From positions 1 through 64,000 of the forward strand of contig CM000432.1 in the NCBI GenBank assembly GCA_000165345.1: 64,000 bases of DNA. The letters run 5' to 3'. The translations under genes and the position numbers were made by a program. Of this stretch, positions 45,227 through 58,979 are shown piece after piece. How positions within the stretch are numbered: position 1 is the first letter of the stretch; each line of letters begins with the position of its first letter. The notes beneath the pieces were generated by a model. The model saw only the letters and a list, made by a program, of their open reading frames with translations. It made no database searches and was not told the origin of the DNA.

Positions 45227-48200
45227 ATGACTGAAGATCAGATAAAAATGTCTTCAACAGATTCTCTGGACTCTTGTTCAATATCTAATTCATCAGATGA
45301 AAATTCTCTGTTTCTCGAAGAAAATTATACAAATATTATTACAATTTCAGATGATAATTTGGAAGATTCAGTTTCAGAAATTGAAGGGGAAATTAGCTCA
45401 AATCTTTCAAGTTTTGAAGAAAACTCTTTAGTTGACAGTTTTTCTTCAGACTCTAATGATCTTAATAAAGATGATGAAAATGAGAAATTAGAAACAAATT
45501 TTGATGATGTTTTTAAAAAATGTGATAATGATGTTTTTATTAATAATAAAGGATTTTCAACAAATTTAAGCCATAAGAATATTTTTAATTATAGTATTAA
45601 TGATTATTTAATATTAGAGCCTTATTTACATTATAGTGAAGAATTTGATAAAAAAGATGACATATTATCTAAGAAATACGACTTAATTAATGGTTTAAAG
45701 CAACAATTAATAGAAGATGAAGATAAATTTGCTGTGAATGGAAACAAAAGGATCTTTCAAGAAGAGCTTATCAAGTTAAACAATCATAATTTTGGTCATC
45801 CTTCATCTATTTGCCATGACAATAATGGACTAATTTTTGTGGGTACAATTAAAGGTTTCTGCTTAATTTTCTTAGAAACAAGCTCAAAGAAGTGTATAGT
45901 TATTGATCCTATTAATGGCTTTTTTTCAAAAATTACTTCAATTTGTATTTCAAAATCAGAAAGTAAAGATTTTGTTTTTTTGTCATTAGCTACTATTGAC
46001 GGAAACCTTTGTCTTTGGAGATTAAATATTGCTAATTTAAAAGAGTTTCTCATGAATGATTGTAATTCATCAAATCATTCAGGCAAAGAAGCTTTACAGG
46101 ATAATATTTTACTTTTTTCCGATTCAAGTAAATGTAATGAAAAAGCATCTCTAGGAGGTACTCAAATTTATCATATTAAAGGCTCAAGTGAAGAAGAGAA
46201 AGAATACTTAAATGATGGTACGATCAAGGATACAGTTAATATAGAGATTAGTAACCAAATTGAAAATGAAGAAGTAATTGAGAATGGAATAGTTTCTAAA
46301 ATGGCTATTTTGTTGAATAATTCTCCAAAACATATAAAGTATGGAATTTTGAATCACGAATTCATTGATATTAGAAGTCAAGAATCTGTTAATAGATTAG
46401 CTATTTTCATTAGTGATTTACAAGGGAATCTTTACGTAACTTTATTAGTTAAAGGGTCTCCAAAAACGAATAATGAAGATGAAACCAATAAAAATATTGA
46501 AAAGATGATAGATGAATGGATAATTCATGAAAAGATCTTCCTTTATAATTCAGAAGAGGATATTATTCATCAGTTTAGAAGTCTTCCTCCTCCACCATTA
46601 AGAAAGAATTTACCCCAAGAAAATACTCAGGTAAATTCAGGACAAACTAGTAAAAGAGAAATTCATCCAATGGATCATTACCAATTTTATTTGGTAGCTG
46701 GAAGAAAGGGATTTTCACTTATTAGTATGCTTCCTCATCCTGCTCTCTGTAATGTAGTGAATTTAGTGGATGATCTAAGAAAAATGAATTTCAAAATACC
46801 TGAGAATGAGATCAATGGAGTTTATTTAACTTGGCTCCGTCCTAGTATAATTTCAAAGAATGCAGAAAGTGTACAGATGCAAATTAGAATCTTAGCTTCA
46901 ATCTCAAGGTATTTGTGTATTTACGAAATAAAATCATTCGAAGAATTTGAGAATTCTGATGAAATTAAGGTCGAGTTAAAATTATCAGCAGTTTGGACAA
47001 TTTTTGACTCAATTCATGGAATATTTGCATTGAGTGAAAATATGATAGCTTTATTAATTGGATTTCGAGGAATTTATATATATCAAATAGTAGAAGATTA
47101 TGATGGATTTAATTCTACTACAAAACTATGTAAAAACACAAACAAACTGAATGTTATAACACAGGCATACATAGAAGAGGAATATCAGCAAAATCTAGAA
47201 CAAAAACAAATACTTGATAATTCGTCAAATAATGTTTTTGATAACTTAAAGAGTCCACAAGATGCATATTTAATTATTAAAAGTAAACCGATAGATTTAA
47301 ACAATCAGGTAAATGAGATGCTAGTTTGCATTCATAAATACAATGACAATAATAAGAAATTATTTGTTGTTTCTCAGACTGTGACAAATGATTTACAAGA
47401 ATCTATTGACTTATTCAGTCAATCTTTTATTCAGTGCAGGACTGGGAAAAGCGTTCGTGTATTACTTCTACTAAATGATAAGATTATTTCACTTTTGATG
47501 TTATTTAAATCGTGGATACCTTTTTTAGAAAATGAATTCAATACAAATATGGAACAAATTAAAAGCTTTATATATGATGATATTTCATGGTCCAGACTTT
47601 CTACATCCTTTATATCACTTTACGAGAAAAGATTACCAAGCCTTCAGACTTGGACAAATATTGATAAAATGATGATTTTAAATATATTAAAAAATATTTT
47701 CAATTCATTATTAGATAATGTAGCTGGTTTCCACTCTAAGATTGAAAGTAAATTATTTGAAGTCTATATAAAGCAAGTTATAAAGCTAATTATAGACTCA
47801 AGTATTAGGTTAAAGTTTTGGGAGTATTTGTTTGAAGAGTTAATACCAGTTATTCAATCTTTAAATTTCGTTCAATTATCTCTAATAGTCAAGGAAGAAC
47901 AGTCAGAAATGATTTCTCTGTTAGACTACTACCTAATTTCGATTGTGGATAGATTTATTGGAAAAGAAATAAGCTGGGAGCTGTTGGATGATGACTTTTT
48001 AAAGCTATTGATTAGCTGGTACAAAAATCGAATTCTAAAATTTGAAAAGCACAAAATTGAGAACAGCCTAGAAGATAATAAGGCCAAAATAGATGATAGT
48101 ATCAATGATATATTTAATCAAGTCCAATTTATTTTGATTAGAACCTTGAAAGTGGACTACTCAGCAACAAGTTCAAATGGAGGAATTGGAAATCCATGGT

Positions 48201-51200
48201 TAGTTTTTGTACCACTATTTAAAAAGTATGACGTTTGGACAAGTTATATATTACTATATCTATTTAGTAGAAAAGATCCAGTTGACCTATTTAAAAGAAT
48301 TATGGTTCAAATGTACGATTATTTCATTCAAGTACATACATTAAACCAACAAAATGAGGCTTTTAATCTGGAAAATAATTTATTACAAGTAATAGATATT
48401 GTTGAATTGCAAAAAAAACTTGAAGAAAACAAAACAATACAAAGCTATTACTACTTTATTTATTCTTTAATTTTTAGAGAAAGTTACCCTTTTAATGAGG
48501 ATGAAGTTAAAGATTTTGACCATTTACAAATAACTAATATTCCATTAATTTTAGATACTGATGTATTTATCAAAGCACTTCTTGAGGAGATTAATGTTGA
48601 AAAACTCAAAATAATTAAAAATAATTGTGAATTATTGATTTTCACTTCATTCAGATTCTATGTATATATATTAGTTGAACTAAAAAAGAAGAAGAACTCT
48701 CTAATACATTTGTCAGAAGAAACTGTTAATGAAGATAATGAAGAGGAGAAAGAGAGAAAAATGGTGAGATTTGAAAAGATTTATTTAATAATGGAAGATC
48801 AATTGGAGTTGTTTGTTTACAAAGTATTGAAAATTGATGAGGCTGATGATTCTAAAAAACTGAATCATTTAATTAATTCTGATTCCCCATTGAAAAAAAA
48901 TTTAGATCTAAAAACTGATATTTTAAAAAACATTATTTGGAAGAGTAGCAAACTTGGGTTATCTGTGAACTATTTATTAGGAAATTACTTGAACTGGGTA
49001 ATATTTAATATTAAAGATTGCAACATTAAGAAAGAGAGCAACTACAAGATATTAATCAATTGTTTCTTTAAAATAATAGAAAAACTAAAAGTTAATTTTG
49101 AAGAAACAGAACAAATTTCAAACTTAGTAAAGAGTATGGAATACAATCTAATAATGGCAATAATAAATAGCAACAGAAATAATGAGGGAATGAATTTTCT
49201 TAATATTCTTTTGAATTGTGTAGGAATTGATAATTATCATACTCAGGAAGATGAATTATTATTTTTTGATCATAATCAAGTTATTAAAGAGTACAATAAA
49301 CTTGAAATGAATCAAAAATTATCTAAAATATTGAAAAAATATTCACTATATAACTTATCATTGTATTTATCAATTCAAGTTTATGATTTGGAAAGTATAT
49401 TGGATATGTACTCAAAGAAGCACTTTATTAATAATAATATTTTGAGAGAATTATATATAATGGATGAAGAGAACAATAATATACTATTTTCACTAAATTA
49501 TATTCTAAGCACAATTGAAAAAGGGATAAATTTTAAGGTATTTGATTATGATCAGGCATTTATATTGATTATTAAATATACAGATTTACTGATTAAGATC
49601 GACTCACTAAATACAATAGACTTGATCATACATATTTTGAGTAGGTGTTTGGATGATGAATTTAATTCCATAAGTAAGAACCCTGTATCGTATTATGCCA
49701 AAATAATTCAAGATGATTTGGACCAAAAAATAAAGAAATTATTATTAGGATCATTGTTATATTACAATGGTACTAAAAATAGTTGTTTTCAGGAAGAAAT
49801 TCTTCTAAGTGATAATTCAATATATAAGAATAAACCAGAATTGAAAAGATGGAATGAGCTGGTTAATCAACTAATACCTCAGTATTTAGAGAGCTTTTTG
49901 AAAGAAAAGAGAACTAATGATTCATCAGTGTTAAATATTTTAGATTACTGGTATCAGAGTTCAGTAAGACATGATGAGTTACTCAATACTCCTTTTGAGA
50001 AATGTTACCACATATGTAGAGAATTAAACAATGAATTTGGAATGATTTATATAAATCAGATATTTTCTGTTAACCCAAATCTATACAACTCTAGTGTTTG
50101 TGAAACGTCAGATCAAATTTTCAAATTTTGCATTTTAAGATTTAAAAGTTATCTTTCAAAAATTAGGGGATTATTAGAGGGAAGATTTAGTAAGGAGACT
50201 TTTAGCTTAAATTCGAAAATGATAGCTAAAGATAAAACTATATTATATTCATTTGATCTTGAAGAGATGAATTCATTAAAGAGTAGAAAAGACTTTTATT
50301 TATTATGGGAGGAATTAATTGAATTTACCAACTTTATTTATTTATATTGCTTTACGAACAATAATTCCAATGTTAATCACTATCATTATGAAATCAAGAA
50401 TGGAAGATATATTGAGTTTTATAAAGATATTTTAGAGTGCTTACTAATAGAAATTGAAAGCATTTCCGAGAGATATAACAGGATATTAACAAAAATAGCA
50501 GAAGAATTTCAAGTTAAAAAGGGAGGTAAAATATCTCAAAATTTGGATTTAAAATTACTTGGGATTGATCTAATAGTTATTTTATACTATATACTGGCTT
50601 GCTTTATACTTGGAAATAATAACTACCAGTATTTATTAGAAAAGTATCTAATAAAGTTTGGTTTTCTTTCAGATTTTCTTTTTAATTCAAAGTTAAATAA
50701 GTTGTTTTCAAGTCCAATTAGCAGTTATTACATTTTTATTAAACCAATTTTGCAGTTAATAGTCAGCGAAGCAAAATCCAAAAGTAATGAAGAAACTAGC
50801 AGAGATCCAAACACAAACTTTCCATGTAAATTTTGGCGCCATTTAGCTCTGGAAATGATGAATTCAAAAATATTCATTGATAAATGCAATGATGAAGTTG
50901 GTCAGCTATTCCAAGGAGATTTACTACATATTTTTTATTCTCTTGTTAATACAATTAAAAAAGCTATAATTGTTCAATTTAATGACCAATCGAATAACTT
51001 TGTGAATTCACACGAGTCGAGATATTTAGAAAATAGAAATAAGATACATGAACAATATTTGAAGTATGGATTAAAGTCAAATTGTTTCTACTGTAAACAG
51101 TCTATTTCTAATTTTGAAGAGGAAGATCTTAAATCAAAAACACAAAACCCTCACTCTTATTCGTTTAATATTATTTCAAATGGGATCAATGAATTTTCGT

Positions 51201-51526
51201 TTAACGATAACAATTTTAATATATTAAACGACAGAAATAGTGAGGGTAGTATTATAATTGAGAGACCAATTCAACGGAAATTCAGTGTGAATGGCAATAG
51301 AGAAAATGAGAATTCCGATGAAGAAAGTGATCCTATGAATATTAATAAACTATATGTATTTCATTGCGGAAATGTTTTTCATAAGAAATGTCTCTATAAC
51401 AGTATTAATAATAAATTTGGTCTCCCGAATGATAAGAAAAATGAAATTTCGGGAAATTTATATACTGGAGATAGAGATTTAACAAATAATTGTTTACATC
51501 AATACAGAGTTTCCTTCAATTATTAA
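45227..51526 (+). CDS. giant protein of 2099 aa with an N-terminal beta-propeller-like region and a C-terminal split RING-H2; VPS8-like (CORVET) or a related HOPS/CORVET subunit
   Basis: The N-terminal FVGTIKGFCLIFLETSSKKCIVIDPINGFFSKITSICIS...LATIDGNLCLWRL resembles the Vps8 N-terminal propeller. The C-terminus has CFYCKQSI...(insert)...LYVFHCGNVFHKKCL, a C-x2-C ... C-x-H-x2-C RING-H2 arrangement typical of Vps8/11/18/41. Confidence 0.35.
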   Translation: MTEDQIKMSSTDSLDSCSISNSSDENSLFLEENYTNIITISDDNLEDSVSEIEGEISSNLSSFEENSLVDSFSSDSNDLNKDDENEKLETNFDDVFKKCDNDVFINNKGFSTNLSHKNIFNYSINDYLILEPYLHYSEEFDKKDDILSKKYDLINGLKQQLIEDEDKFAVNGNKRIFQEELIKLNNHNFGHPSSICHDNNGLIFVGTIKGFCLIFLETSSKKCIVIDPINGFFSKITSICISKSESKDFVFLSLATIDGNLCLWRLNIANLKEFLMNDCNSSNHSGKEALQDNILLFSDSSKCNEKASLGGTQIYHIKGSSEEEKEYLNDGTIKDTVNIEISNQIENEEVIENGIVSKMAILLNNSPKHIKYGILNHEFIDIRSQESVNRLAIFISDLQGNLYVTLLVKGSPKTNNEDETNKNIEKMIDEWIIHEKIFLYNSEEDIIHQFRSLPPPPLRKNLPQENTQVNSGQTSKREIHPMDHYQFYLVAGRKGFSLISMLPHPALCNVVNLVDDLRKMNFKIPENEINGVYLTWLRPSIISKNAESVQMQIRILASISRYLCIYEIKSFEEFENSDEIKVELKLSAVWTIFDSIHGIFALSENMIALLIGFRGIYIYQIVEDYDGFNSTTKLCKNTNKLNVITQAYIEEEYQQNLEQKQILDNSSNNVFDNLKSPQDAYLIIKSKPIDLNNQVNEMLVCIHKYNDNNKKLFVVSQTVTNDLQESIDLFSQSFIQCRTGKSVRVLLLLNDKIISLLMLFKSWIPFLENEFNTNMEQIKSFIYDDISWSRLSTSFISLYEKRLPSLQTWTNIDKMMILNILKNIFNSLLDNVAGFHSKIESKLFEVYIKQVIKLIIDSSIRLKFWEYLFEELIPVIQSLNFVQLSLIVKEEQSEMISLLDYYLISIVDRFIGKEISWELLDDDFLKLLISWYKNRILKFEKHKIENSLEDNKAKIDDSINDIFNQVQFILIRTLKVDYSATSSNGGIGNPWLVFVPLFKKYDVWTSYILLYLFSRKDPVDLFKRIMVQMYDYFIQVHTLNQQNEAFNLENNLLQVIDIVELQKKLEENKTIQSYYYFIYSLIFRESYPFNEDEVKDFDHLQITNIPLILDTDVFIKALLEEINVEKLKIIKNNCELLIFTSFRFYVYILVELKKKKNSLIHLSEETVNEDNEEEKERKMVRFEKIYLIMEDQLELFVYKVLKIDEADDSKKLNHLINSDSPLKKNLDLKTDILKNIIWKSSKLGLSVNYLLGNYLNWVIFNIKDCNIKKESNYKILINCFFKIIEKLKVNFEETEQISNLVKSMEYNLIMAIINSNRNNEGMNFLNILLNCVGIDNYHTQEDELLFFDHNQVIKEYNKLEMNQKLSKILKKYSLYNLSLYLSIQVYDLESILDMYSKKHFINNNILRELYIMDEENNNILFSLNYILSTIEKGINFKVFDYDQAFILIIKYTDLLIKIDSLNTIDLIIHILSRCLDDEFNSISKNPVSYYAKIIQDDLDQKIKKLLLGSLLYYNGTKNSCFQEEILLSDNSIYKNKPELKRWNELVNQLIPQYLESFLKEKRTNDSSVLNILDYWYQSSVRHDELLNTPFEKCYHICRELNNEFGMIYINQIFSVNPNLYNSSVCETSDQIFKFCILRFKSYLSKIRGLLEGRFSKETFSLNSKMIAKDKTILYSFDLEEMNSLKSRKDFYLLWEELIEFTNFIYLYCFTNNNSNVNHYHYEIKNGRYIEFYKDILECLLIEIESISERYNRILTKIAEEFQVKKGGKISQNLDLKLLGIDLIVILYYILACFILGNNNYQYLLEKYLIKFGFLSDFLFNSKLNKLFSSPISSYYIFIKPILQLIVSEAKSKSNEETSRDPNTNFPCKFWRHLALEMMNSKIFIDKCNDEVGQLFQGDLLHIFYSLVNTIKKAIIVQFNDQSNNFVNSHESRYLENRNKIHEQYLKYGLKSNCFYCKQSISNFEEEDLKSKTQNPHSYSFNIISNGINEFSFNDNNFNILNDRNSEGSIIIERPIQRKFSVNGNRENENSDEESDPMNINKLYVFHCGNVFHKKCLYNSINNKFGLPNDKKNEISGNLYTGDRDLTNNCLHQYRVSFNY

Positions 51527-52197: not shown

Positions 52198-55100
52198 ATG
52201 ACAATTTCTAGAAGCAGTTCATCATTAAATGAAGATGGAAAAATCAATCGAAGTAAGATTGTTCCATATATTACAAGAGAGATGAGTATTGCTCAGCTTC
52301 AAGATAAGAAATACCATAGTTTTGTGCAAAATACATTGGCAGATTATCAAGCAAGTGCATTTGATGCTCAGAAAATTGCATTGGAAAAAGATAAAGAGCT
52401 TAAAGAGTTGAGAGATACACAAAATTCAGTTAAGGTTTCGTTAAAGTATTATCAAGAGAAATGCCAGCAGTTAGAAAATGAGCTTAAAGCAACTTCAATG
52501 GGGCTATTATATGGGAGGAAGGAAAAAGAACAAGAGAGAGAAATTGCAAGATTGAGTACTGAAATAACAAGTTTTGAGAAAAAAAAAGAGGAGTTAGAAA
52601 CAAACTTGAGATATTATCAAGATAGAGAAATGTATTTACAGCACGAGTTGGAACTTAAAGAAAATGAATTAAATAAGCTATCTCAAGAATTTGCCACTTT
52701 AACAGAGACATATAATAGTACATATTCGGAATTAGAGAAATGTAAATTTGACTTAAGTACGGAACAGAATAATAATAAAACATTAGAAAATCAATTAAAA
52801 GTAAAGAATGACGAGATTACAAAATATAAAGGAAGTTTAACAACTAAAGAAGCGGAAATTAATAATTTGAAGAATGAAATACAAAAATTGAACTCAATGG
52901 TTGAAATCAATAAATCTGAAATAAATACTATTAGTGAGCAGCTTAAATTAAAACAGAAAGAGTGCTTAGATTATAGTAGTAAGATTCAACAAATAGAATT
53001 GGATATGAGAAAAAACTTGGATGAAAACGAAGTATTAATTAAGGATTTAAATTCACAGATAACTTTGACTAGAAATGACTTGACTCAAAAGGTTGAATTA
53101 ATTAATGAGTTAAACTCTCGAATTTCTACATTAGATTTAAAGCTACAAGAATCGTCAAGAGATATATTGGAAAAAGAAAAAACTATAGGAAAGCTTAAAG
53201 CTGAACAGCAGATTACTAGTTTAGAGGCTGATGGTCTTAAAACGAAGATTCAGATTATTGAACAAGAGAAAACCAATATTGAACAAGAAATTGAAACGAT
53301 ATTGGTAGAAAAGAAAAAAATAGATGAAGAACTTAAAGATACAATTAATAGGAAGAATTCCAAGTTAGATGAAGCTTTAACTTACAGAATTGAATCAGCT
53401 ATAACTGCTGAGAGAGAAATTAATCAACTTAAAGAAAAGAACCAAATAATTGAATTTGAGAAAAAAATGATGGAGGAAAAATTGGAAATTTCTAATAATA
53501 ATATAAAAATAAAAGATGATGAAATTCAACAACTTAAAACTACAATCCAAGATCTTAATCGACAAAATATTAAACTTGAGAATGAGCTTCATTCATTACA
53601 AGAAAGTAGCAGAAGAGAAAGTGTGGAGAATACATTTAGAAGTAGTAGAATTGGCTCAAATATTGTAAGTAGTAAAATCAATGCATCATCTGGGTCTACA
53701 GTTAATACCAGTGAAAATACAATTTCTAGTAATATAGCAACTAGTAATGCTGAAACTGTTGAAAAAGTAGTTAATGCTGATACTTTAGTTGACACATCTA
53801 TTCAAGATTCAGCTGTAAATGCTGCTTCTACAACAGTTAAAATGCCATCATCCAAATCAATTTCAAGTAAAAGTGCAATTTCCTCATTGCCAAAGCCAAA
53901 AGCTAAAAGTGCAGTTAAATCAGCTCCTGCTACTGAAGAGAATAACGGTGATCAAACAATATCTGAACCTGCATCTATATCTGAAGTTAAATCTAAAGCT
54001 GGAAGTAAATCAATGCCAGTTTCAAAATCCAAATCTGTAATTAAAGCTAAATCTCAGGTTGTTGCTAAATCCGATATGGATTCTGGACAAATTGTAAAGG
54101 AAGACAATGAGACCAAGGACAATGAGGATGAAGCGGCCAAGGTTAGAGCTCAGAAAGAAAAGGAGGAAGCAGAAGCAAAAGCTTTAAAAGAGAAGGAAGA
54201 AGCTGAGGCCAAAGCCAAGAAAGAAAAAGAAGAGGCTGAGGCTAAAGCTTTAAAGGAGAAAGAAGAAGCTGAGGCCAAAGCTAAGAAAGAAAAGGAGAAG
54301 GAAGAAGCTGAGGCCAAAGCTAAGAAAGAAAAAGAGGAAGCTGAGGCCAAGGCTAAGAAGGAAAAGGAAGAAGCTGAGGCCAAAGCTTTAAAAGAGAAAG
54401 AAGAAGCTGAGGCTAAAGCCAAGAAAGAAAAGGAGAAGGAAGAAGCTGAGGCCAAGGCAAAGAAAGAAAAAGAGGAGGCTGAGGCTAAAGCTAAAAAGGA
54501 GAAGGAGGAGGCTGAGGCAAAGGCCAAGAAGGAGAAGGAGGAAGCTGAAGCCAAAGCTAAGAAAGAGAAGGAGGAAGCTGAGGCCAAAGCTAAGAAAGAA
54601 AAAGAGGAAGCTGAGGCCAAGGCTAAGAAGGAGAAGGAGGAAGCTGAGGCCAAGGCTAAAAAGGAGAAGGAAGAGGCTGAGGCTAAAGCCAAGAAAGAAA
54701 AGGAGGAGGCTGAGGCTGAGGCTGAGGCAAAGGCAAAGAAAGAAAAGGAGGAGGCTGAGGCAAAGGCCAAGAAGGAGAAGGAAGAAGCTGAGGCCAAAGC
54801 TAAGAAAGAGAAGGAGGAAGCTGAGGCCAAAGCTAAGAAAGAAAAAGAGGAAGCTGAGGCCAAGGCTAAAAAGGAAAAAGAGGAGGCTGAGGCTAAAGCC
54901 AAGAAAGAAAAAGAAGAGGCTGAGGCTAAAGCTAAGAAGGAGAAGGAGGAAGCTGAGGCCAAGGCTAAAAAGGAGAAGGAAGAGGCTGATACAAAAGAGA
55001 AAGAGAAGACAGAAATCAAAGAAAATTCAAAAATAGATTCAGATAGTGAGGAAAACTCTGAATCTAAAGAAAAGAAGTCAACTGGACTACTTGCTAAGAC

Positions 55101-57699
55101 AATAGCAAAAGCTAAGGCAAAATCAAAGTCTAATTCTGTCTTATCAAAGCTTCCTTCTAAAGTTAATAAAGAAACAAGCAAAGCTGAGAATGATTTAGAA
55201 AATGAGATAGAAAAAGATGATGAATCAAATAAAAAAGAAACTAAAAAGGAGGAAGATTCAATAGCAAAGCTTAAAGCAAAAGTACCTGTTAAGCCAAGTC
55301 CTTTATTGAAATCAAAGAGTGAAAAAGAAAAGGAGAAAGAAGAAGATAAAGATGAGGAGAAGAAAGAAAAGGACAAAGAGAAAAAGGAAAAGTTAAAAGA
55401 AAAAGAAGAGGAAGGTAAGGAGAAAAGTAATGAAAAGGATAAAGGAGAAGATAAGGATGAAAAGGATAAATCAAAAAGTAAAATAAAAGACTCTCAGAAA
55501 GAGGAAAAATTAGAAGAAACGGAGAAAAATTCATTAAAGAAAGAGTCCAAAGATGATGAGAAGAAAGAAAAGGAGGATCCAATAGCGAAACTTAAGGCGA
55601 AAGTACCTGTTAAGCCAAGTCCTTTATTGAAATCAAAGAGTGAAAAAGAAAAGGAGAAAGAAGATAAAGATGAGGAGAAGAAAGAAAAGGAGGACAAAGA
55701 GAAAAAGGAAAAGTTAAAAGAAAAAGGAGAGGAAGGCAAGGAAAAGGAGGAAGGTAAAGAAAAGGAGAAAGAGAAAGAAAAGGATGAAAAGGATAAATCA
55801 AAAAGTAAAACAAAAGATTTTGAGAAAGAAAAATTAAAGGAAACTGAAAAGGGCGAAAAAGAAGCCGAAAAAGATTCATCAAAGAAAGAGTCCAAAGATG
55901 AGGAGAAGAAAGAAAAGGAGGATCCAATAGCAAAACTTAAGGCAAAGGTACCTGTTAAGCCAAGTCCTTTATTGAAATCAAAGAGTGAAAAAGAAAAGGA
56001 GAAAGAAGAAGATAAAGATGAGGAGAAGAAAGAAAAGGAGGACAAAGAGAAAAAAGAAAAGTTAAAAGAAAAAGAAGAGGAAGGTAAAGAAAAAGAGAAA
56101 GAAAAGGTCAAAGCTCAAAAGAAAAAAGATGAAAAGGAAGAAAAAGATAAGGACGAAAAAGAAGATGATAAAGAAAAGAGTAAAGAAAGTGAAAATCTTG
56201 AAAAAAAACCAACTATTTCAGAAAAAGTTATAAACCCTGAAGGTAAAATTGATGAGAAGGACTCAGAAAAAGAAACTTTAAATCATAGTAAAACTAAGGA
56301 AATTGCTAAAACAAAGGCTGCAGCTCAACTTAAGGCAGCTATATTAGCAAGAGCATCATCTAAAAAGAATATATCAGCTGATAATAGTGAAGATTCAAAG
56401 TTAAAGAAATCTGAATCTAAGAAAGATATTATCAAAGATGAAGCCAAAGATGAAAGTAAGACAAATAAAGATGGAAAGGATCTCAAAAAAACTTTGAAAG
56501 AAGGTGAGGGTTCAATTTCAAAGGTTAAAGGAAAAGGTAAGGTAAAGACTAAGGCAAAGGCAAAAGAAGCCCCACCTCCAGCTGAAGAATCAAGTTGGTT
56601 CAGTGGTTGGTTTGGAACTTCAGCACCGGAAGAACCTCCCAAAGAAGAGGAGAAAAAAGAAGAGAAAAAAGAGGATGAAACGCCGCCACCACCACCACCA
56701 GCTGAGGAGTCAAGTTGGTTCAGTGGTTGGTTTGGAACCTCAGCACCTGAAGAACCACCTAAGGAGGATCCAGCGAAAAAACCTCCTAAAAAGCATTTAG
56801 TTAAGAAATCATCTTCTGTGAAGAAAGATGATGGCGAAAAGAAAGAAGAAAAGGAGGAAAAGAAGGAGGTGAAGAAAGACGAAAAAGAGGAGAAGAAAGA
56901 TGAAAAAGAGGATAAGAAAGACGAAAAGAAGGAAGGAATAGAGGAGACAAAAGAGAAGAAAGAGGAGAAGAAGGAAGGTGACGAAAAGAAGGATGAAACA
57001 GATAATAAGGAGGTAAAGGAAATTGCTGAAAAGGAAAAAACAGGGGTAGACCCAGAGAAAAAAGCTGTCAAAGCAAAGACAAAATCTAAAGCAAAGGCTA
57101 AAGCTAAGGAAGAGCCACCTCCTGCACCACCAGCAGAAGAATCAAGTTGGTTCAGTGGTTGGTTTGGAGCTTCAGCACCGGAAGAACCTCCTAAAGAAGA
57201 GGAGAAAAAAGAAGAGAAAAAAGAGGATGCACCACCAGCTGAAGAGTCGAGCTGGTTCGGCGGTTGGTTTGGAGCCTCCACACCTGAAGAGCCACCTAAG
57301 GAAGATCCAGCAAAAAGACCTACTCCAAAAGTACATCCGGCAAAAAAATCATCCTCCGTGAAGAAGGATAATGATGAAAAGAAAGAAGAAAAGGAGGAAA
57401 AGAAGGAGGAGAAAAAAGAGGAAAAGAAGGAGGAGAAGAAAGAGGAAAAGGAGGAAAAGAAAGAGGACGATGAAAAAGAAAAAAAAGTAGTAAAAGCTAA
57501 AACAAAAACAAAAGCAAAAGCAAAAGCCAAGGCTAAGGAAGAGCCACCTCCTGCACCACCAGCAGAAGAGTCAAGCTGGTTCAGTGGCTGGTTTGGAGCT
57601 GCTGCACCCGCAGAGCCCGAGCCAGAACCAAATAAAGAAGAGCCAAAGGAGGAACAAAAAACTGAGGAACCTGCTGCAACATCCTGGTGGGGATGGTAA
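52198..57699 (+). CDS. giant coiled-coil / low-complexity protein of 1833 aa. The N-terminal 500 aa is heptad coiled-coil. The rest is Lys/Glu-rich with three distinct tandem-repeat arrays and a Trp-rich C-terminus (TSWWGW).
   Basis: Single uninterrupted ORF. All antisense ORFs (54150..55376, 55494..56111, 56325..57530 and others) are repeat shadows. Confidence 0.75.
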   Translation: MTISRSSSSLNEDGKINRSKIVPYITREMSIAQLQDKKYHSFVQNTLADYQASAFDAQKIALEKDKELKELRDTQNSVKVSLKYYQEKCQQLENELKATSMGLLYGRKEKEQEREIARLSTEITSFEKKKEELETNLRYYQDREMYLQHELELKENELNKLSQEFATLTETYNSTYSELEKCKFDLSTEQNNNKTLENQLKVKNDEITKYKGSLTTKEAEINNLKNEIQKLNSMVEINKSEINTISEQLKLKQKECLDYSSKIQQIELDMRKNLDENEVLIKDLNSQITLTRNDLTQKVELINELNSRISTLDLKLQESSRDILEKEKTIGKLKAEQQITSLEADGLKTKIQIIEQEKTNIEQEIETILVEKKKIDEELKDTINRKNSKLDEALTYRIESAITAEREINQLKEKNQIIEFEKKMMEEKLEISNNNIKIKDDEIQQLKTTIQDLNRQNIKLENELHSLQESSRRESVENTFRSSRIGSNIVSSKINASSGSTVNTSENTISSNIATSNAETVEKVVNADTLVDTSIQDSAVNAASTTVKMPSSKSISSKSAISSLPKPKAKSAVKSAPATEENNGDQTISEPASISEVKSKAGSKSMPVSKSKSVIKAKSQVVAKSDMDSGQIVKEDNETKDNEDEAAKVRAQKEKEEAEAKALKEKEEAEAKAKKEKEEAEAKALKEKEEAEAKAKKEKEKEEAEAKAKKEKEEAEAKAKKEKEEAEAKALKEKEEAEAKAKKEKEKEEAEAKAKKEKEEAEAKAKKEKEEAEAKAKKEKEEAEAKAKKEKEEAEAKAKKEKEEAEAKAKKEKEEAEAKAKKEKEEAEAKAKKEKEEAEAEAEAKAKKEKEEAEAKAKKEKEEAEAKAKKEKEEAEAKAKKEKEEAEAKAKKEKEEAEAKAKKEKEEAEAKAKKEKEEAEAKAKKEKEEADTKEKEKTEIKENSKIDSDSEENSESKEKKSTGLLAKTIAKAKAKSKSNSVLSKLPSKVNKETSKAENDLENEIEKDDESNKKETKKEEDSIAKLKAKVPVKPSPLLKSKSEKEKEKEEDKDEEKKEKDKEKKEKLKEKEEEGKEKSNEKDKGEDKDEKDKSKSKIKDSQKEEKLEETEKNSLKKESKDDEKKEKEDPIAKLKAKVPVKPSPLLKSKSEKEKEKEDKDEEKKEKEDKEKKEKLKEKGEEGKEKEEGKEKEKEKEKDEKDKSKSKTKDFEKEKLKETEKGEKEAEKDSSKKESKDEEKKEKEDPIAKLKAKVPVKPSPLLKSKSEKEKEKEEDKDEEKKEKEDKEKKEKLKEKEEEGKEKEKEKVKAQKKKDEKEEKDKDEKEDDKEKSKESENLEKKPTISEKVINPEGKIDEKDSEKETLNHSKTKEIAKTKAAAQLKAAILARASSKKNISADNSEDSKLKKSESKKDIIKDEAKDESKTNKDGKDLKKTLKEGEGSISKVKGKGKVKTKAKAKEAPPPAEESSWFSGWFGTSAPEEPPKEEEKKEEKKEDETPPPPPPAEESSWFSGWFGTSAPEEPPKEDPAKKPPKKHLVKKSSSVKKDDGEKKEEKEEKKEVKKDEKEEKKDEKEDKKDEKKEGIEETKEKKEEKKEGDEKKDETDNKEVKEIAEKEKTGVDPEKKAVKAKTKSKAKAKAKEEPPPAPPAEESSWFSGWFGASAPEEPPKEEEKKEEKKEDAPPAEESSWFGGWFGASTPEEPPKEDPAKRPTPKVHPAKKSSSVKKDNDEKKEEKEEKKEEKKEEKKEEKKEEKEEKKEDDEKEKKVVKAKTKTKAKAKAKAKEEPPPAPPAEESSWFSGWFGAAAPAEPEPEPNKEEPKEEQKTEEPAATSWWGW
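54150..54990 (+). repeat. about 29 tandem copies of a 39-bp unit encoding KEKEEAEAKAKKE (with KAL/KAK alternation) inside CDS 52198..57699
   Basis: Read directly from the sequence. There is synonymous wobble variation between units (gaa/gag, aaa/aag, gct/gcc), so this is not a sequencing artefact. Confidence 0.9.
55255..56100 (+). repeat. three tandem copies of a 320-345-bp unit (about 110 aa, starting DSIAKLKAKVPVKPSPLLKSKSEKEKEKEEDKDEEKKEK) inside CDS 52198..57699
   Basis: Units begin near 55261, 55581 and 55925 with more than 90% identity. Confidence 0.85.
56570..57620 (+). repeat. five dispersed copies of an aromatic motif module PPAEESSWFSGWFG(A/T)SAPEEPPKE(E/D), separated by KE-rich spacers. 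Four copies form two pairs and the fifth stands alone.
   Basis: Copies begin near 56575, 56695, 57130, 57235 and 57550. Confidence 0.85.
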
Positions 57700-58326: not shown

Positions 58327-58979
58327 ATGGGAGATAACAAAAGAATGACTCTGGTAAGTTTAACAACTATGCTTATTGGCCTTAATTAATTTTTTATTAT
58401 AAATATTTAAAGGAACTCAGAGGCCTCCAAGTATTTACAGACGAGCTTGAAGAAGATAAGCAGGTTGGAATAAAGCTGATTGGTAATAGAAACGACAACT
58501 TTTTGGGTATTATTAGAGGGCCTATAGGAACACCATATGAAGGTGGTATATTCCAACTTGATATTATTGTACCAAAAGAATATCCATACGAGCCTCCAAA
58601 AGTTAAATTCATCACAAGAATTTGGCATCCGAATATTTCTAGTCAAACAGGAGCTATTTGCTTGGATATTTTAAAAGATGCCTGGAGCCCTGCTTTAACT
58701 CTTAGAACAGTAATGCTTTCTATACAAGCATTACTCTCTTCTCCTGAACCAAATGATCCTCAAGATGCATTGGTCGCATCTCTATACAAAAGTGATTACC
58801 AAGAATATATTGAAACGGCCAAAAGTTGGACACAAATGTATGCAAAGCCAACATCAAAGGAAGAAAGGATTAAGAGATTTCTTGATATGGGATTCAACCG
58901 TGAATCTATAATAACAGCACTAGAAAGAAATAATTGGGATGAAAATCTCGCTCTAAATGAGCTATTATTTGAAAACTAA
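58327..58979 (+). CDS. UBE2K: ubiquitin-conjugating enzyme E2 with a C-terminal UBA domain (UBE2K/E2-25K/Ubc1 type), 2 exons: join(58327..58353,58413..58979)
   Basis: The UBC core has HPN plus active-site Cys (FITRIWHPNISSQTGAICLDILKDAWSPALTLRTV). The C-terminal KRFLDMGFNRESIITALERNNWDENLALNELL is a UBA. Exon 1 (MGDNKRMTL) ends at donor GTAAGT at 58354. The acceptor tttaaag is at 58411-58412 and the intron is 59 nt, phase 0. The ORF track shows only 58503.. with a TTG start. Confidence 0.85.

Follow-up and report, generated by a model that had tools for sequence, protein, structure and literature searches.

cgd4_200 of Cryptosporidium parvum: a genus-restricted coiled-coil protein with a length-variable, predicted helical array and C-terminal tryptophan modules that may serve in docking

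The analysed stretch of DNA (hereafter, the window) comprises 64,000 nucleotides (nt), positions 1 to 64,000 of the forward strand of contig CM000432.1 in the GenBank assembly GCA_000165345.1. Neighbouring gene matches and a terminal telomere array identify it as the left end of Cryptosporidium parvum chromosome 4. The subject of this work is the open reading frame (ORF) 52198-57699, which, judging from the gene order, corresponds to cgd4_200 / CPATCC_001494. It is flanked by cgd4_190 on one side and by a UBC+UBA E2 gene on the other. The upstream ORF 45227-51526 matches exactly the protein of C. parvum chromosome 4 gene 190 (EAK87695.1, CPATCC_001493, CPHLJ_4g190), and the UBC+UBA E2 enzyme (EAK87733.1 / XP_625630.1) and two hypothetical proteins are encoded downstream. 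The order MMS19, gene 190, cgd4_200 is kept in C. bovis, C. ryanae, and C. andersoni (synteny). The product of cgd4_200 is a soluble cytosolic protein of 1833 amino acids (aa), in which five parts follow one another in a fixed order. It is a genus-restricted orphan protein with a recognisable layout: a coiled coil, a predicted single-alpha-helix (SAH) spacer, and a putative multivalent linear-motif array. The features of the gene are listed below; "W module" denotes a repeated tryptophan-containing segment, TRF the Tandem Repeats Finder program, and dN/dS the ratio of nonsynonymous to synonymous substitution rates.

52198..57699, plus strand: complete single-exon gene, 1833 codons plus stop; uninterrupted in the ORF list
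52198..53643, plus strand: conserved N-terminal coiled-coil rod, aa 1-482, closing with the invariant SSRRESVENTFRS; proposed anchoring/dimerisation part (heptad periodicity, conservation, dN/dS)
53644..54159, plus strand: Ser/Thr/Lys-rich linker, aa 483-654, poorly conserved, with one conserved island (composition, alignment)
54160..54978, plus strand: repeat system 1, the E/A/K array, 24 units of 33 bp / 11 aa; putative single-alpha-helix-type spacer of variable length (unit listing, TRF)
55252..56256, plus strand: repeat system 2, three K/E/D-rich polyampholyte units of ~110 aa (TRF periods 321 and 345 bp)
56515..57696, plus strand: repeat system 3, putative C-terminal docking region, aa 1440-1833; three super-repeats, the third truncated
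56518..56565, plus strand: polybasic tract 1, SKVKGKGKVKTKAKAK, net charge +8; ends 10 aa upstream of W module 1
56575..56634, plus strand: W module 1, PPAEESSWFSGWFGTSAPEE; kept in both C. hominis and C. tyzzeri, almost intact in C. meleagridis
56695..56754, plus strand: W module 2, PPAEESSWFSGWFGTSAPEE (repeat comparison)
57058..57105, plus strand: polybasic tract 2, KKAVKAKTKSKAKAKA, net charge +8; ends 14 aa upstream of W module 3
57127..57186, plus strand: W module 3, PPAEESSWFSGWFGASAPEE (repeat comparison)
57232..57291, plus strand: W module 4, PPAEESSWFGGWFGASTPEE (repeat comparison)
57481..57528, plus strand: polybasic tract 3, KKVVKAKTKTKAKAKA, net charge +8; ends 16 aa upstream of W module 5
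57556..57615, plus strand: W module 5, PPAEESSWFSGWFGAAAPAE (repeat comparison)
57664..57696, plus strand: degenerate sixth module, EEPAATSWWGW-COOH; invariant in C. hominis, C. tyzzeri, and C. meleagridis

The first-pass annotation of this DNA, made from the letters alone, had read the locus as a single unbroken coding frame, and this reading holds. The ORF is intact, and two further chromosome-scale assemblies of C. parvum (GCA_031892065.1 and GCA_035232765.1) carry the 5502-nt gene without a single nucleotide difference. The repeat counts of the window are thus reproducible, although the independence of those assemblies cannot be shown. Over the first 500 codons, the dN/dS values are 0.03, 0.07, and 0.11 in comparison with C. 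hominis, C. tyzzeri, and C. meleagridis, respectively; cgd4_200 is a real gene under purifying selection. Three ORFs of the minus strand (54150-55376, 55494-56111, and 56325-57530; 408, 205, and 401 aa) were rejected as genes, being Ser/Phe/Leu-rich mirror images of the K/E/A repeats. Lysine and glutamate together make up 45% of the residues of the protein. Neither a signal peptide nor a transmembrane (TM) segment is present, the latter because the top Kyte-Doolittle window of 19 aa reaches just 0.52. A secreted antigen was rejected for want of both.

A coiled-coil N-terminus of about 500 aa had been proposed in the first-pass annotation, and about 480 aa are indeed coiled-coil-like. The protein starts with MTISRSSSSLNE; the hydrophobic residues of aa 57-480 follow a 3.5-residue (heptad) periodicity with z = 7.8 (as high a value in 0 of 500 shuffles), and the chain is proline-free from aa 24 to 549. 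This heptad-periodic stretch is only about one quarter of the whole protein. The N-terminus is 54-57% identical to the C. bovis and C. ryanae proteins, and many columns of the alignment are invariant. An exhaustive HMMER search of 1.84 billion representative proteins with a three-sequence N-terminal profile added C. andersoni cand_010220 (E = 7e-40), while the two remaining weak matches are unrelated metagenome repeat proteins. The profile detected no homologue outside Cryptosporidium among these representatives, which leaves the protein without a wider apicomplexan family.

The whole protein has no Pfam match at E up to 1. In a search of four segments with E allowed up to 10, the only matches were generic coiled-coil families below the threshold (ATG16, MAD, Fez1, and crescentin), and on the N-terminal coiled coil itself Pfam returned coiled-coil families only, all of them below the threshold. 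A PDB sequence search with the N-terminus gave no match. The full-length search was swamped by K/E-rich words, and its sole match was an ENA metagenome protein of 2310 aa. The latter is unrelated; it carries a long C-terminal array of the KAKKQKEEEE(L) type, a convergent ER/K-like charged repeat.

In the linker that follows the rod, regular structure is absent before aa 633 from the AlphaFold2 (AF2) model. A short island, ISS[LT]PKPKAKS (window 53880-53915, aa ~561-572), is invariant in C. parvum, C. bovis, and C. ryanae, whereas the surrounding linker is unconserved. The island may be another linear motif or a phosphorylation site.

The E/A/K array had been described as about 29 units of 13 aa (39 bp), which proved to be wrong. 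At 54147-54989, TRF counts 24.8 copies with a 33-bp period, and when the array is split at KEEAE, 24 units are obtained, of which 21 have 11 aa (KEEAEAKA[K/L]KE), two have 13 aa, and one has 15 aa. The wobble differences between units, taken in the first-pass annotation as a sign of coding constraint, are more telling than was stated there. The 21 canonical units are encoded by 18 distinct DNA sequences and correspond to just 2 peptide sequences, and their pairwise codon differences number 950 synonymous versus 54 nonsynonymous. All 11 third codon positions vary among the units, while only one first position and one second position do. Such synonymous scrambling between units would also lower the DNA identity usable for recombination among them.

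The composition of the array is extreme: 71-73% of the residues are charged, 0-2% are hydrophobic, and the net charge is near 0. The index of opposite-charge pairs at i/i+3 and i/i+4 is 0.31-0.39, the highest in the protein, compared with a maximum of 0.12 for the coiled coil and values around 0 for the remaining K/E-rich regions, because alternating K and E place like charges at i+4. From the single sequence, AF2 predicts one unbroken helix of 311 residues (aa 633-943), with the predicted local distance difference test (pLDDT) score mostly between 72 and 90. ER/K-type SAH domains occur in myosin VI/X and caldesmon, among others. At the sequence level the array has what defines them, namely dense i/i+4 opposite-charge pairs, no hydrophobic seam, and a continuous predicted helix; like them, it is highly charged, nearly free of hydrophobic residues, rich in i to i+4 Glu/Lys pairs, and predicted as one helix, and it is proposed to be a semi-rigid spacer. 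Unlike them, it consists of near-perfect tandem units of 11 aa, contains 27% Ala and no Arg, and is length-polymorphic through gain and loss of units.

An amphipathic 11-mer helix of the LEA_4/apolipoprotein/synuclein type was considered and rejected: there is no Pfam match, and the periodicity is not conserved. At the position of the array, the C. ryanae protein has the 8-aa unit AKEEAEKK, and that of C. andersoni has a unit of K/E/T/I/G, so that the composition is kept but the periodicity is not. As the period differs between species, a hendecad-specific structure (an Ala stripe or a 3-11 amphipathic helix) is unlikely, and a composition-defined ER/K-type single alpha-helix would be the better reading of the array.

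Copy number had been expected to be polymorphic, and the length of the array does range from 244 to 319 aa across isolates and species. The window and the two other chromosome-scale assemblies of C. parvum share an array of 272 aa; C. parvum HLJ has one of 244 aa, C. meleagridis one of 278 aa, and C. hominis one of 319 aa. If each residue adds 0.15 nm, the array alone would span about 37 nm for HLJ, 41 nm for the window, 42 nm for C. meleagridis, and 48 nm for C. hominis. The HLJ protein (GCA_048859185.1, 1804 aa) differs from that of the window by array deletions of 2 and 26 aa, by one residue elsewhere, and by one substitution. The C. hominis protein is 1871 aa long. C. meleagridis UKMEL1 has an intact ORF of 1894 aa with four anchors of the ~110-aa system, compared with three in the window.

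The suspicion that such repeats are prone to assembly failure was likewise well founded. Of the short-read contigs retrieved, all that reach the array end inside it. Six C. parvum short-read contigs that were checked stop at window nt 54240-54249, that is, 80-90 nt into the array, and a seventh contig, from C. hominis, stops at a comparable point; the contigs of C. bovis, C. ryanae, and C. andersoni stop at or within the array. In three further assemblies, there are frame breaks or N-gaps inside the repeat region of the gene. Frame shifts, single Ns, or a 231-N gap inside the gene can be noted in C. meleagridis GCA_039657295.1, C. hominis GCA_045269125.1 and GCA_001483515.1, and C. tyzzeri, where the gene models are split or truncated. 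Errors of the indel or scaffolding kind in A-rich repeats are the probable cause of these in-gene breaks.

Repeat system 2 consists of three units, as had been noticed earlier. Their lengths are 107, 115, and ~110 aa, and each of them is headed by the basic, proline-containing IAKLKAKVPVKPSPLLKSKSEKEKEKE, at aa 1022, 1129, and 1244. Its i/i+4 charge index is near zero or negative, and in this respect system 2 is unlike the E/A/K array.

For the C-terminal region, the first-pass annotation listed five copies of PPAEESSWFSGWFGxSAPEEPPKE and the terminal TSWWGW, and all of these were recovered, the copies as PPAEESSWF[SG]GWFG. They are nested in three super-repeats, in each of which a polybasic tract is followed by a hinge rich in Pro, then by W module A, a KE spacer, and finally W module B. 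As the third super-repeat is cut short, the terminal EEPAATSWWGW takes the place of its module B. The five W modules start at aa 1466, 1506, 1650, 1685, and 1793, and all 13 tryptophans of the protein lie within six clusters, i.e., the five modules and the terminal SWWGW. A net charge of +7 or more is reached in only four 16-aa segments of the whole protein. All of them belong to the W region, and modules 1, 3, and 5 are each preceded, at a distance of 10-16 aa, by the end of one of them. In the AF2 model of the C-terminal 412 aa, all W modules are coil with pLDDT below 50, and helices are confined to the long KE spacers (aa 1548-1614 and 1726-1772). When the 8-mers of the protein are scored on the Wimley-White interfacial scale, the aromatic clusters take the first six places as the most interface-seeking (-4.9 to -5.8 kcal/mol), the next segment being at -2.0.

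A comparison of the C-terminal region in C. parvum, C. hominis, C. tyzzeri, and C. meleagridis indicated that the number of W modules is constant (five and the terminal cluster), while both other repeat systems vary in length. The length differences fall in the spacers. The synonymous rate (dS) is equal in modules and spacers, and the nonsynonymous rate (dN) is 0.004-0.031 in the modules versus 0.018-0.052 in the spacers. The first-pass annotation had allowed that the motif might be a common low-complexity artefact. A query of two modules obtained no scoring match among 5.8 billion protein clusters and none in the PDB, and a search of JGI metagenomes with the degenerate DNA pattern of EESSWFxxWFG gave five matches, all in stop-filled frames, for which reason they are chance matches. 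Since the SSWF module was found nowhere else in these collections, it is not a common low-complexity artefact. The aromatic module SSWF[SG]GWFG appears to be undescribed. It should be noted that an exact-sequence look-up reported the cgd4_200 protein itself as absent from the protein collection, though two assemblies encode it. It would seem, then, that this protein and those nearest to it escape the protein searches, and the missing matches of the C. parvum group are not biological.

Among known systems, the golgins (GMAP-210, golgin-84, TMF) offer a parallel to the proposed layout of the cgd4_200 product, in that a short Trp capture motif is borne by a very long coiled-coil rod, far from the anchor. 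S-W-F is the core common to SSWF and to the golgin motif M-S-W-L/F, the Trp of which is essential for capture (PMC5267433). In golgins, however, one copy of the motif occupies the extreme N-terminus and the C-terminus bears the anchor (GRAB, TMD, or Rab6-binding), whereas in cgd4_200 the polarity is reversed and the motifs are six. An N-terminal MSW[LF] is absent from cgd4_200, in which the SSWF motifs are internal or C-terminal. No GRAB, GRIP, or Rab6-binding domain, TM segment, or sequence homology to golgins was found in it by Pfam, hydropathy, and profile search. The product of cgd4_200 is thus not a golgin by membership, though it may work in a golgin-like manner with reversed polarity.

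The di-Trp ligands of delta-COP (the Dsl1 lasso, Gcs1, and ArfGAP1) offer a second parallel, at the level of pattern: AEESSWFSGWFG..PEE and EEPAATSWWGW are acid-flanked and predicted as coil with pLDDT below 50. Suckling and colleagues reportedly defined the di-Trp motif in 2015 as W-x(1-6)-[WF], which WFSGW, WFSGWF, and the C-terminal WGW would fit. The modules of cgd4_200 differ from these ligands in being longer (~20 aa conserved), Pro-bounded, and paired with polybasic tracts, and the protein is unrelated to Dsl1 and the ArfGAPs.

The reading that we favour, though only tentatively and as something short of probable, is that the cgd4_200 product is a long-reach tether or scaffold, the disordered W modules of which dock multivalently on a partner protein. 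The conserved coiled coil would dimerise and fix the protein to a cellular structure, while the variable helical array, as a semi-rigid spacer, and the polyampholyte would supply reach. The six SSWF[SG]GWFG / SWWGW modules would be the business end, acting as multivalent and individually weak short linear motifs; their Trp and Phe side chains may insert into hydrophobic pockets of the partner, in the manner known for acid-flanked Trp motifs and the domains of vesicle coats and adaptors. The adjoining polybasic tracts could add an electrostatic pull toward an acidic surface, either of a membrane or of the partner. Docking on a partner protein is favoured because the modules are acid- and Pro-flanked, predicted to be disordered, and conserved over ~20 residues, and these are properties of short linear motifs. 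There are precedents for both elements: the mu-homology domain of delta-COP binds Trp-based motifs amid negative charge in unstructured regions of the Dsl1 tether and of ArfGAPs (LIG_deltaCOP1_diTrp_1; PMC7145657; PMC4868844), and long coiled-coil golgins capture vesicles via the short M-S-W-L/F motif of the distal tip, in which the Trp is essential (PMC5267433). It is unlikely, but worth stating, that the modules are a lineage-specific motif for vesicle or organelle capture; the protein would then be a golgin-like tether invented in Cryptosporidium, with reversed polarity and with a reach tuned by gain and loss of 11-aa units, serving a parasite-peculiar compartment (the single rhoptry, small granules, or the feeder organelle).

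Several observations weigh against docking on a partner protein through a long-reach tether. No localisation, expression, or interaction data for the cgd4_200 protein were found in the literature. The monomeric state of the array helix is predicted. Little weight attaches to a match with W-x(1-6)-[WF], given how short and degenerate this pattern is. The conservation of the W modules covers only the close group of C. parvum, C. hominis, C. tyzzeri, and C. meleagridis, the contigs of C. bovis, C. ryanae, and C. andersoni ending in the array, and the empty result of the two-module query in the protein collection is a weak hint that distant species are without the motif. Finally, the polybasic tracts and the very favourable interfacial free energy suit direct binding to lipid equally well.

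This last point leads to the main rival explanation, which is possible, if on the unlikely side: the W hooks bind lipid, each super-repeat being a "basic plus aromatic" peripheral anchor, and the protein attaches to membranes or vesicles in a multivalent and reversible way. The polybasic tract would lie on acidic phospholipids, and the Trp/Phe clusters would partition into the bilayer interface; of all the explanations, this one is nearest to the membrane idea of the first-pass annotation. The lead of the six W clusters over the rest of the protein in the interface-seeking score speaks for it, as do the restriction of polybasic tracts (net +7 to +8 per 16 aa) to the W region, with three of them just upstream of modules 1, 3, and 5, and the presence of one aromatic cluster at the free C-terminus. 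If the modules were helical, W1/W5 and F2/F6 would come to lie on one face opposite Ser/Gly, as in lipid-packing-sensor motifs. However, every module has acidic flanks (AEESS..., ...PEE), which should repel anionic membranes, whereas known unstructured membrane anchors mix basic with aromatic residues. The aromatic core is just 8 residues long and Pro-bounded, far shorter than helices of the amphipathic lipid packing sensor (ALPS) type. A stretch of 20 aa, flanks included, is conserved among the paralogous copies despite their synonymous divergence, which lipid insertion does not require, and the score itself depends on the scale values used. Taken broadly, the suggestion that the aromatic modules mediate membrane or protein docking is plausible, as it fits the modelled physical chemistry of the region (disorder, prolines, interface-seeking clusters, and polybasic neighbours).

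It is also conceivable, but distinctly improbable, that only the N-terminal coiled coil is specific, that the repeats are tolerated low-complexity expansions (an entropic bristle or bulk polyampholyte), and that the Trp modules have no docking role. Two of the three repeat systems vary freely in length across isolates and species, the repeat units at the position of the array differ in distant species, and a homologue of the module was found nowhere else. Mere tolerance, however, agrees poorly with a fixed number and sequence of W modules between varying spacers, with a dN lower in the modules than in the spacers, with an array peptide that is near-invariant against saturated synonymous change, and with the threefold occurrence of the polybasic-plus-module arrangement.

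The aromatic cores suggest a further, very unlikely candidate, an FxFG-type protein of the nuclear pore or of nuclear transport, in which xWFG modules would be binding sites for karyopherins, the protein would be held in the pore or basket by its coiled coil, and the polybasic tracts would resemble nuclear localisation signals (NLSs). FG nucleoporins are commonly anchored by coiled coils. The sequence FSFGAKPEEKK of Nsp1-type repeats resembles the aromatic-x-aromatic-G-A-[S/K]-[A/P]-[P/E]-E...KK of the modules, aromatic-x-aromatic-Gly cores stand in Lys/Glu-rich spacers in both cases, and the Lys-rich tracts of cgd4_200 look like classical NLSs. Unlike the Nsp1 type, though, cgd4_200 has only five modules, with five FG dipeptides 35-140 aa apart, and the spacers are much longer, ~50% K+E, and predicted to be helical, not disordered; no similarity to nucleoporin families was found in Pfam or PDB. 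An Argonaute hook of the GW type was rejected, since Cryptosporidium is not known to have RNA interference.

The gene has a published assignment to SAS-4. Table 1 of a 2015 survey gives cgd4_200 as the Cryptosporidium match of SAS-4 (BLAST e-14 to human NP_060921; PMC4348508), and this table is the only literature mention of cgd4_200 that was found; none was found for the motif or the newer locus tags. That the protein is an orthologue of SAS-4/CPAP, or another centrosome- or microtubule-associated protein whose Lys-rich motifs bind tubulin like the KKEE-type repeats of MAP1B, is highly improbable. The Lys-rich repeats and the long coiled coil are in its favour, and a coiled coil combined with K/E-rich sequence is what the protein has in common with SAS-4/CPAP. 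Nevertheless, the Tcp10_C/G-box (PF07202), like any other Pfam domain, is absent from every segment at E up to 10, and the N-terminal profile finds Cryptosporidium only, with no SAS-4 from Toxoplasma, Plasmodium, or animals. A BLAST value of e-14 would be expected from composition alone between K/E-rich coiled coils. The SAS-4 label is thus not supported: the defining G-box is missing, and no SAS-4 from other organisms was retrieved.

Some observations on the neighbourhood of the gene can be added. The cgd4_190 gene (45227-51526, plus strand) encodes a protein of 2099 aa without a Pfam match on record, although one source calls it a WD40-repeat protein. Its C-terminal end is Cys/His-rich (VFHCGNVFHKKC...CLHQY) and resembles a RING-type finger, and the layout of the protein recalls large vesicle-tethering subunits. 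The UBC+UBA E2 gene (58327-58979, plus strand) contains an intron of 59 nt at 58354-58412, and its spliced product of 197 aa matches database entries exactly. At the start of the window, nt 45-770 are a noisy CCTAAA telomere array (81% matches and 13% indels), and the first ~44 nt resemble a plasmid polylinker (GCATGC...GGATCC). Positions 1-770 look like the left telomere of chromosome 4, accompanied by what is probably leftover vector sequence or reads that were not corrected.

Among the leading causes of diarrhoea in children is Cryptosporidium, a parasite whose cell biology has been charted only poorly. Many large "low-complexity" genes of this genus are uncharacterised and broken in most assemblies; at the cgd4_200 locus, several assemblies carry truncated or frame-shifted gene models. 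The published SAS-4 label of this gene should go, and the 33-bp array is a potential length marker for the typing of isolates. If the proposed reading is true, cgd4_200 would be a clear example of a repeat that stayed constant as protein while all of its synonymous sites drifted, and its arrays of 244 to 319 aa would represent a natural series of spacer lengths. The protein would then be a genus-specific long-range tether with a previously unrecognised multivalent Trp/Phe docking motif.

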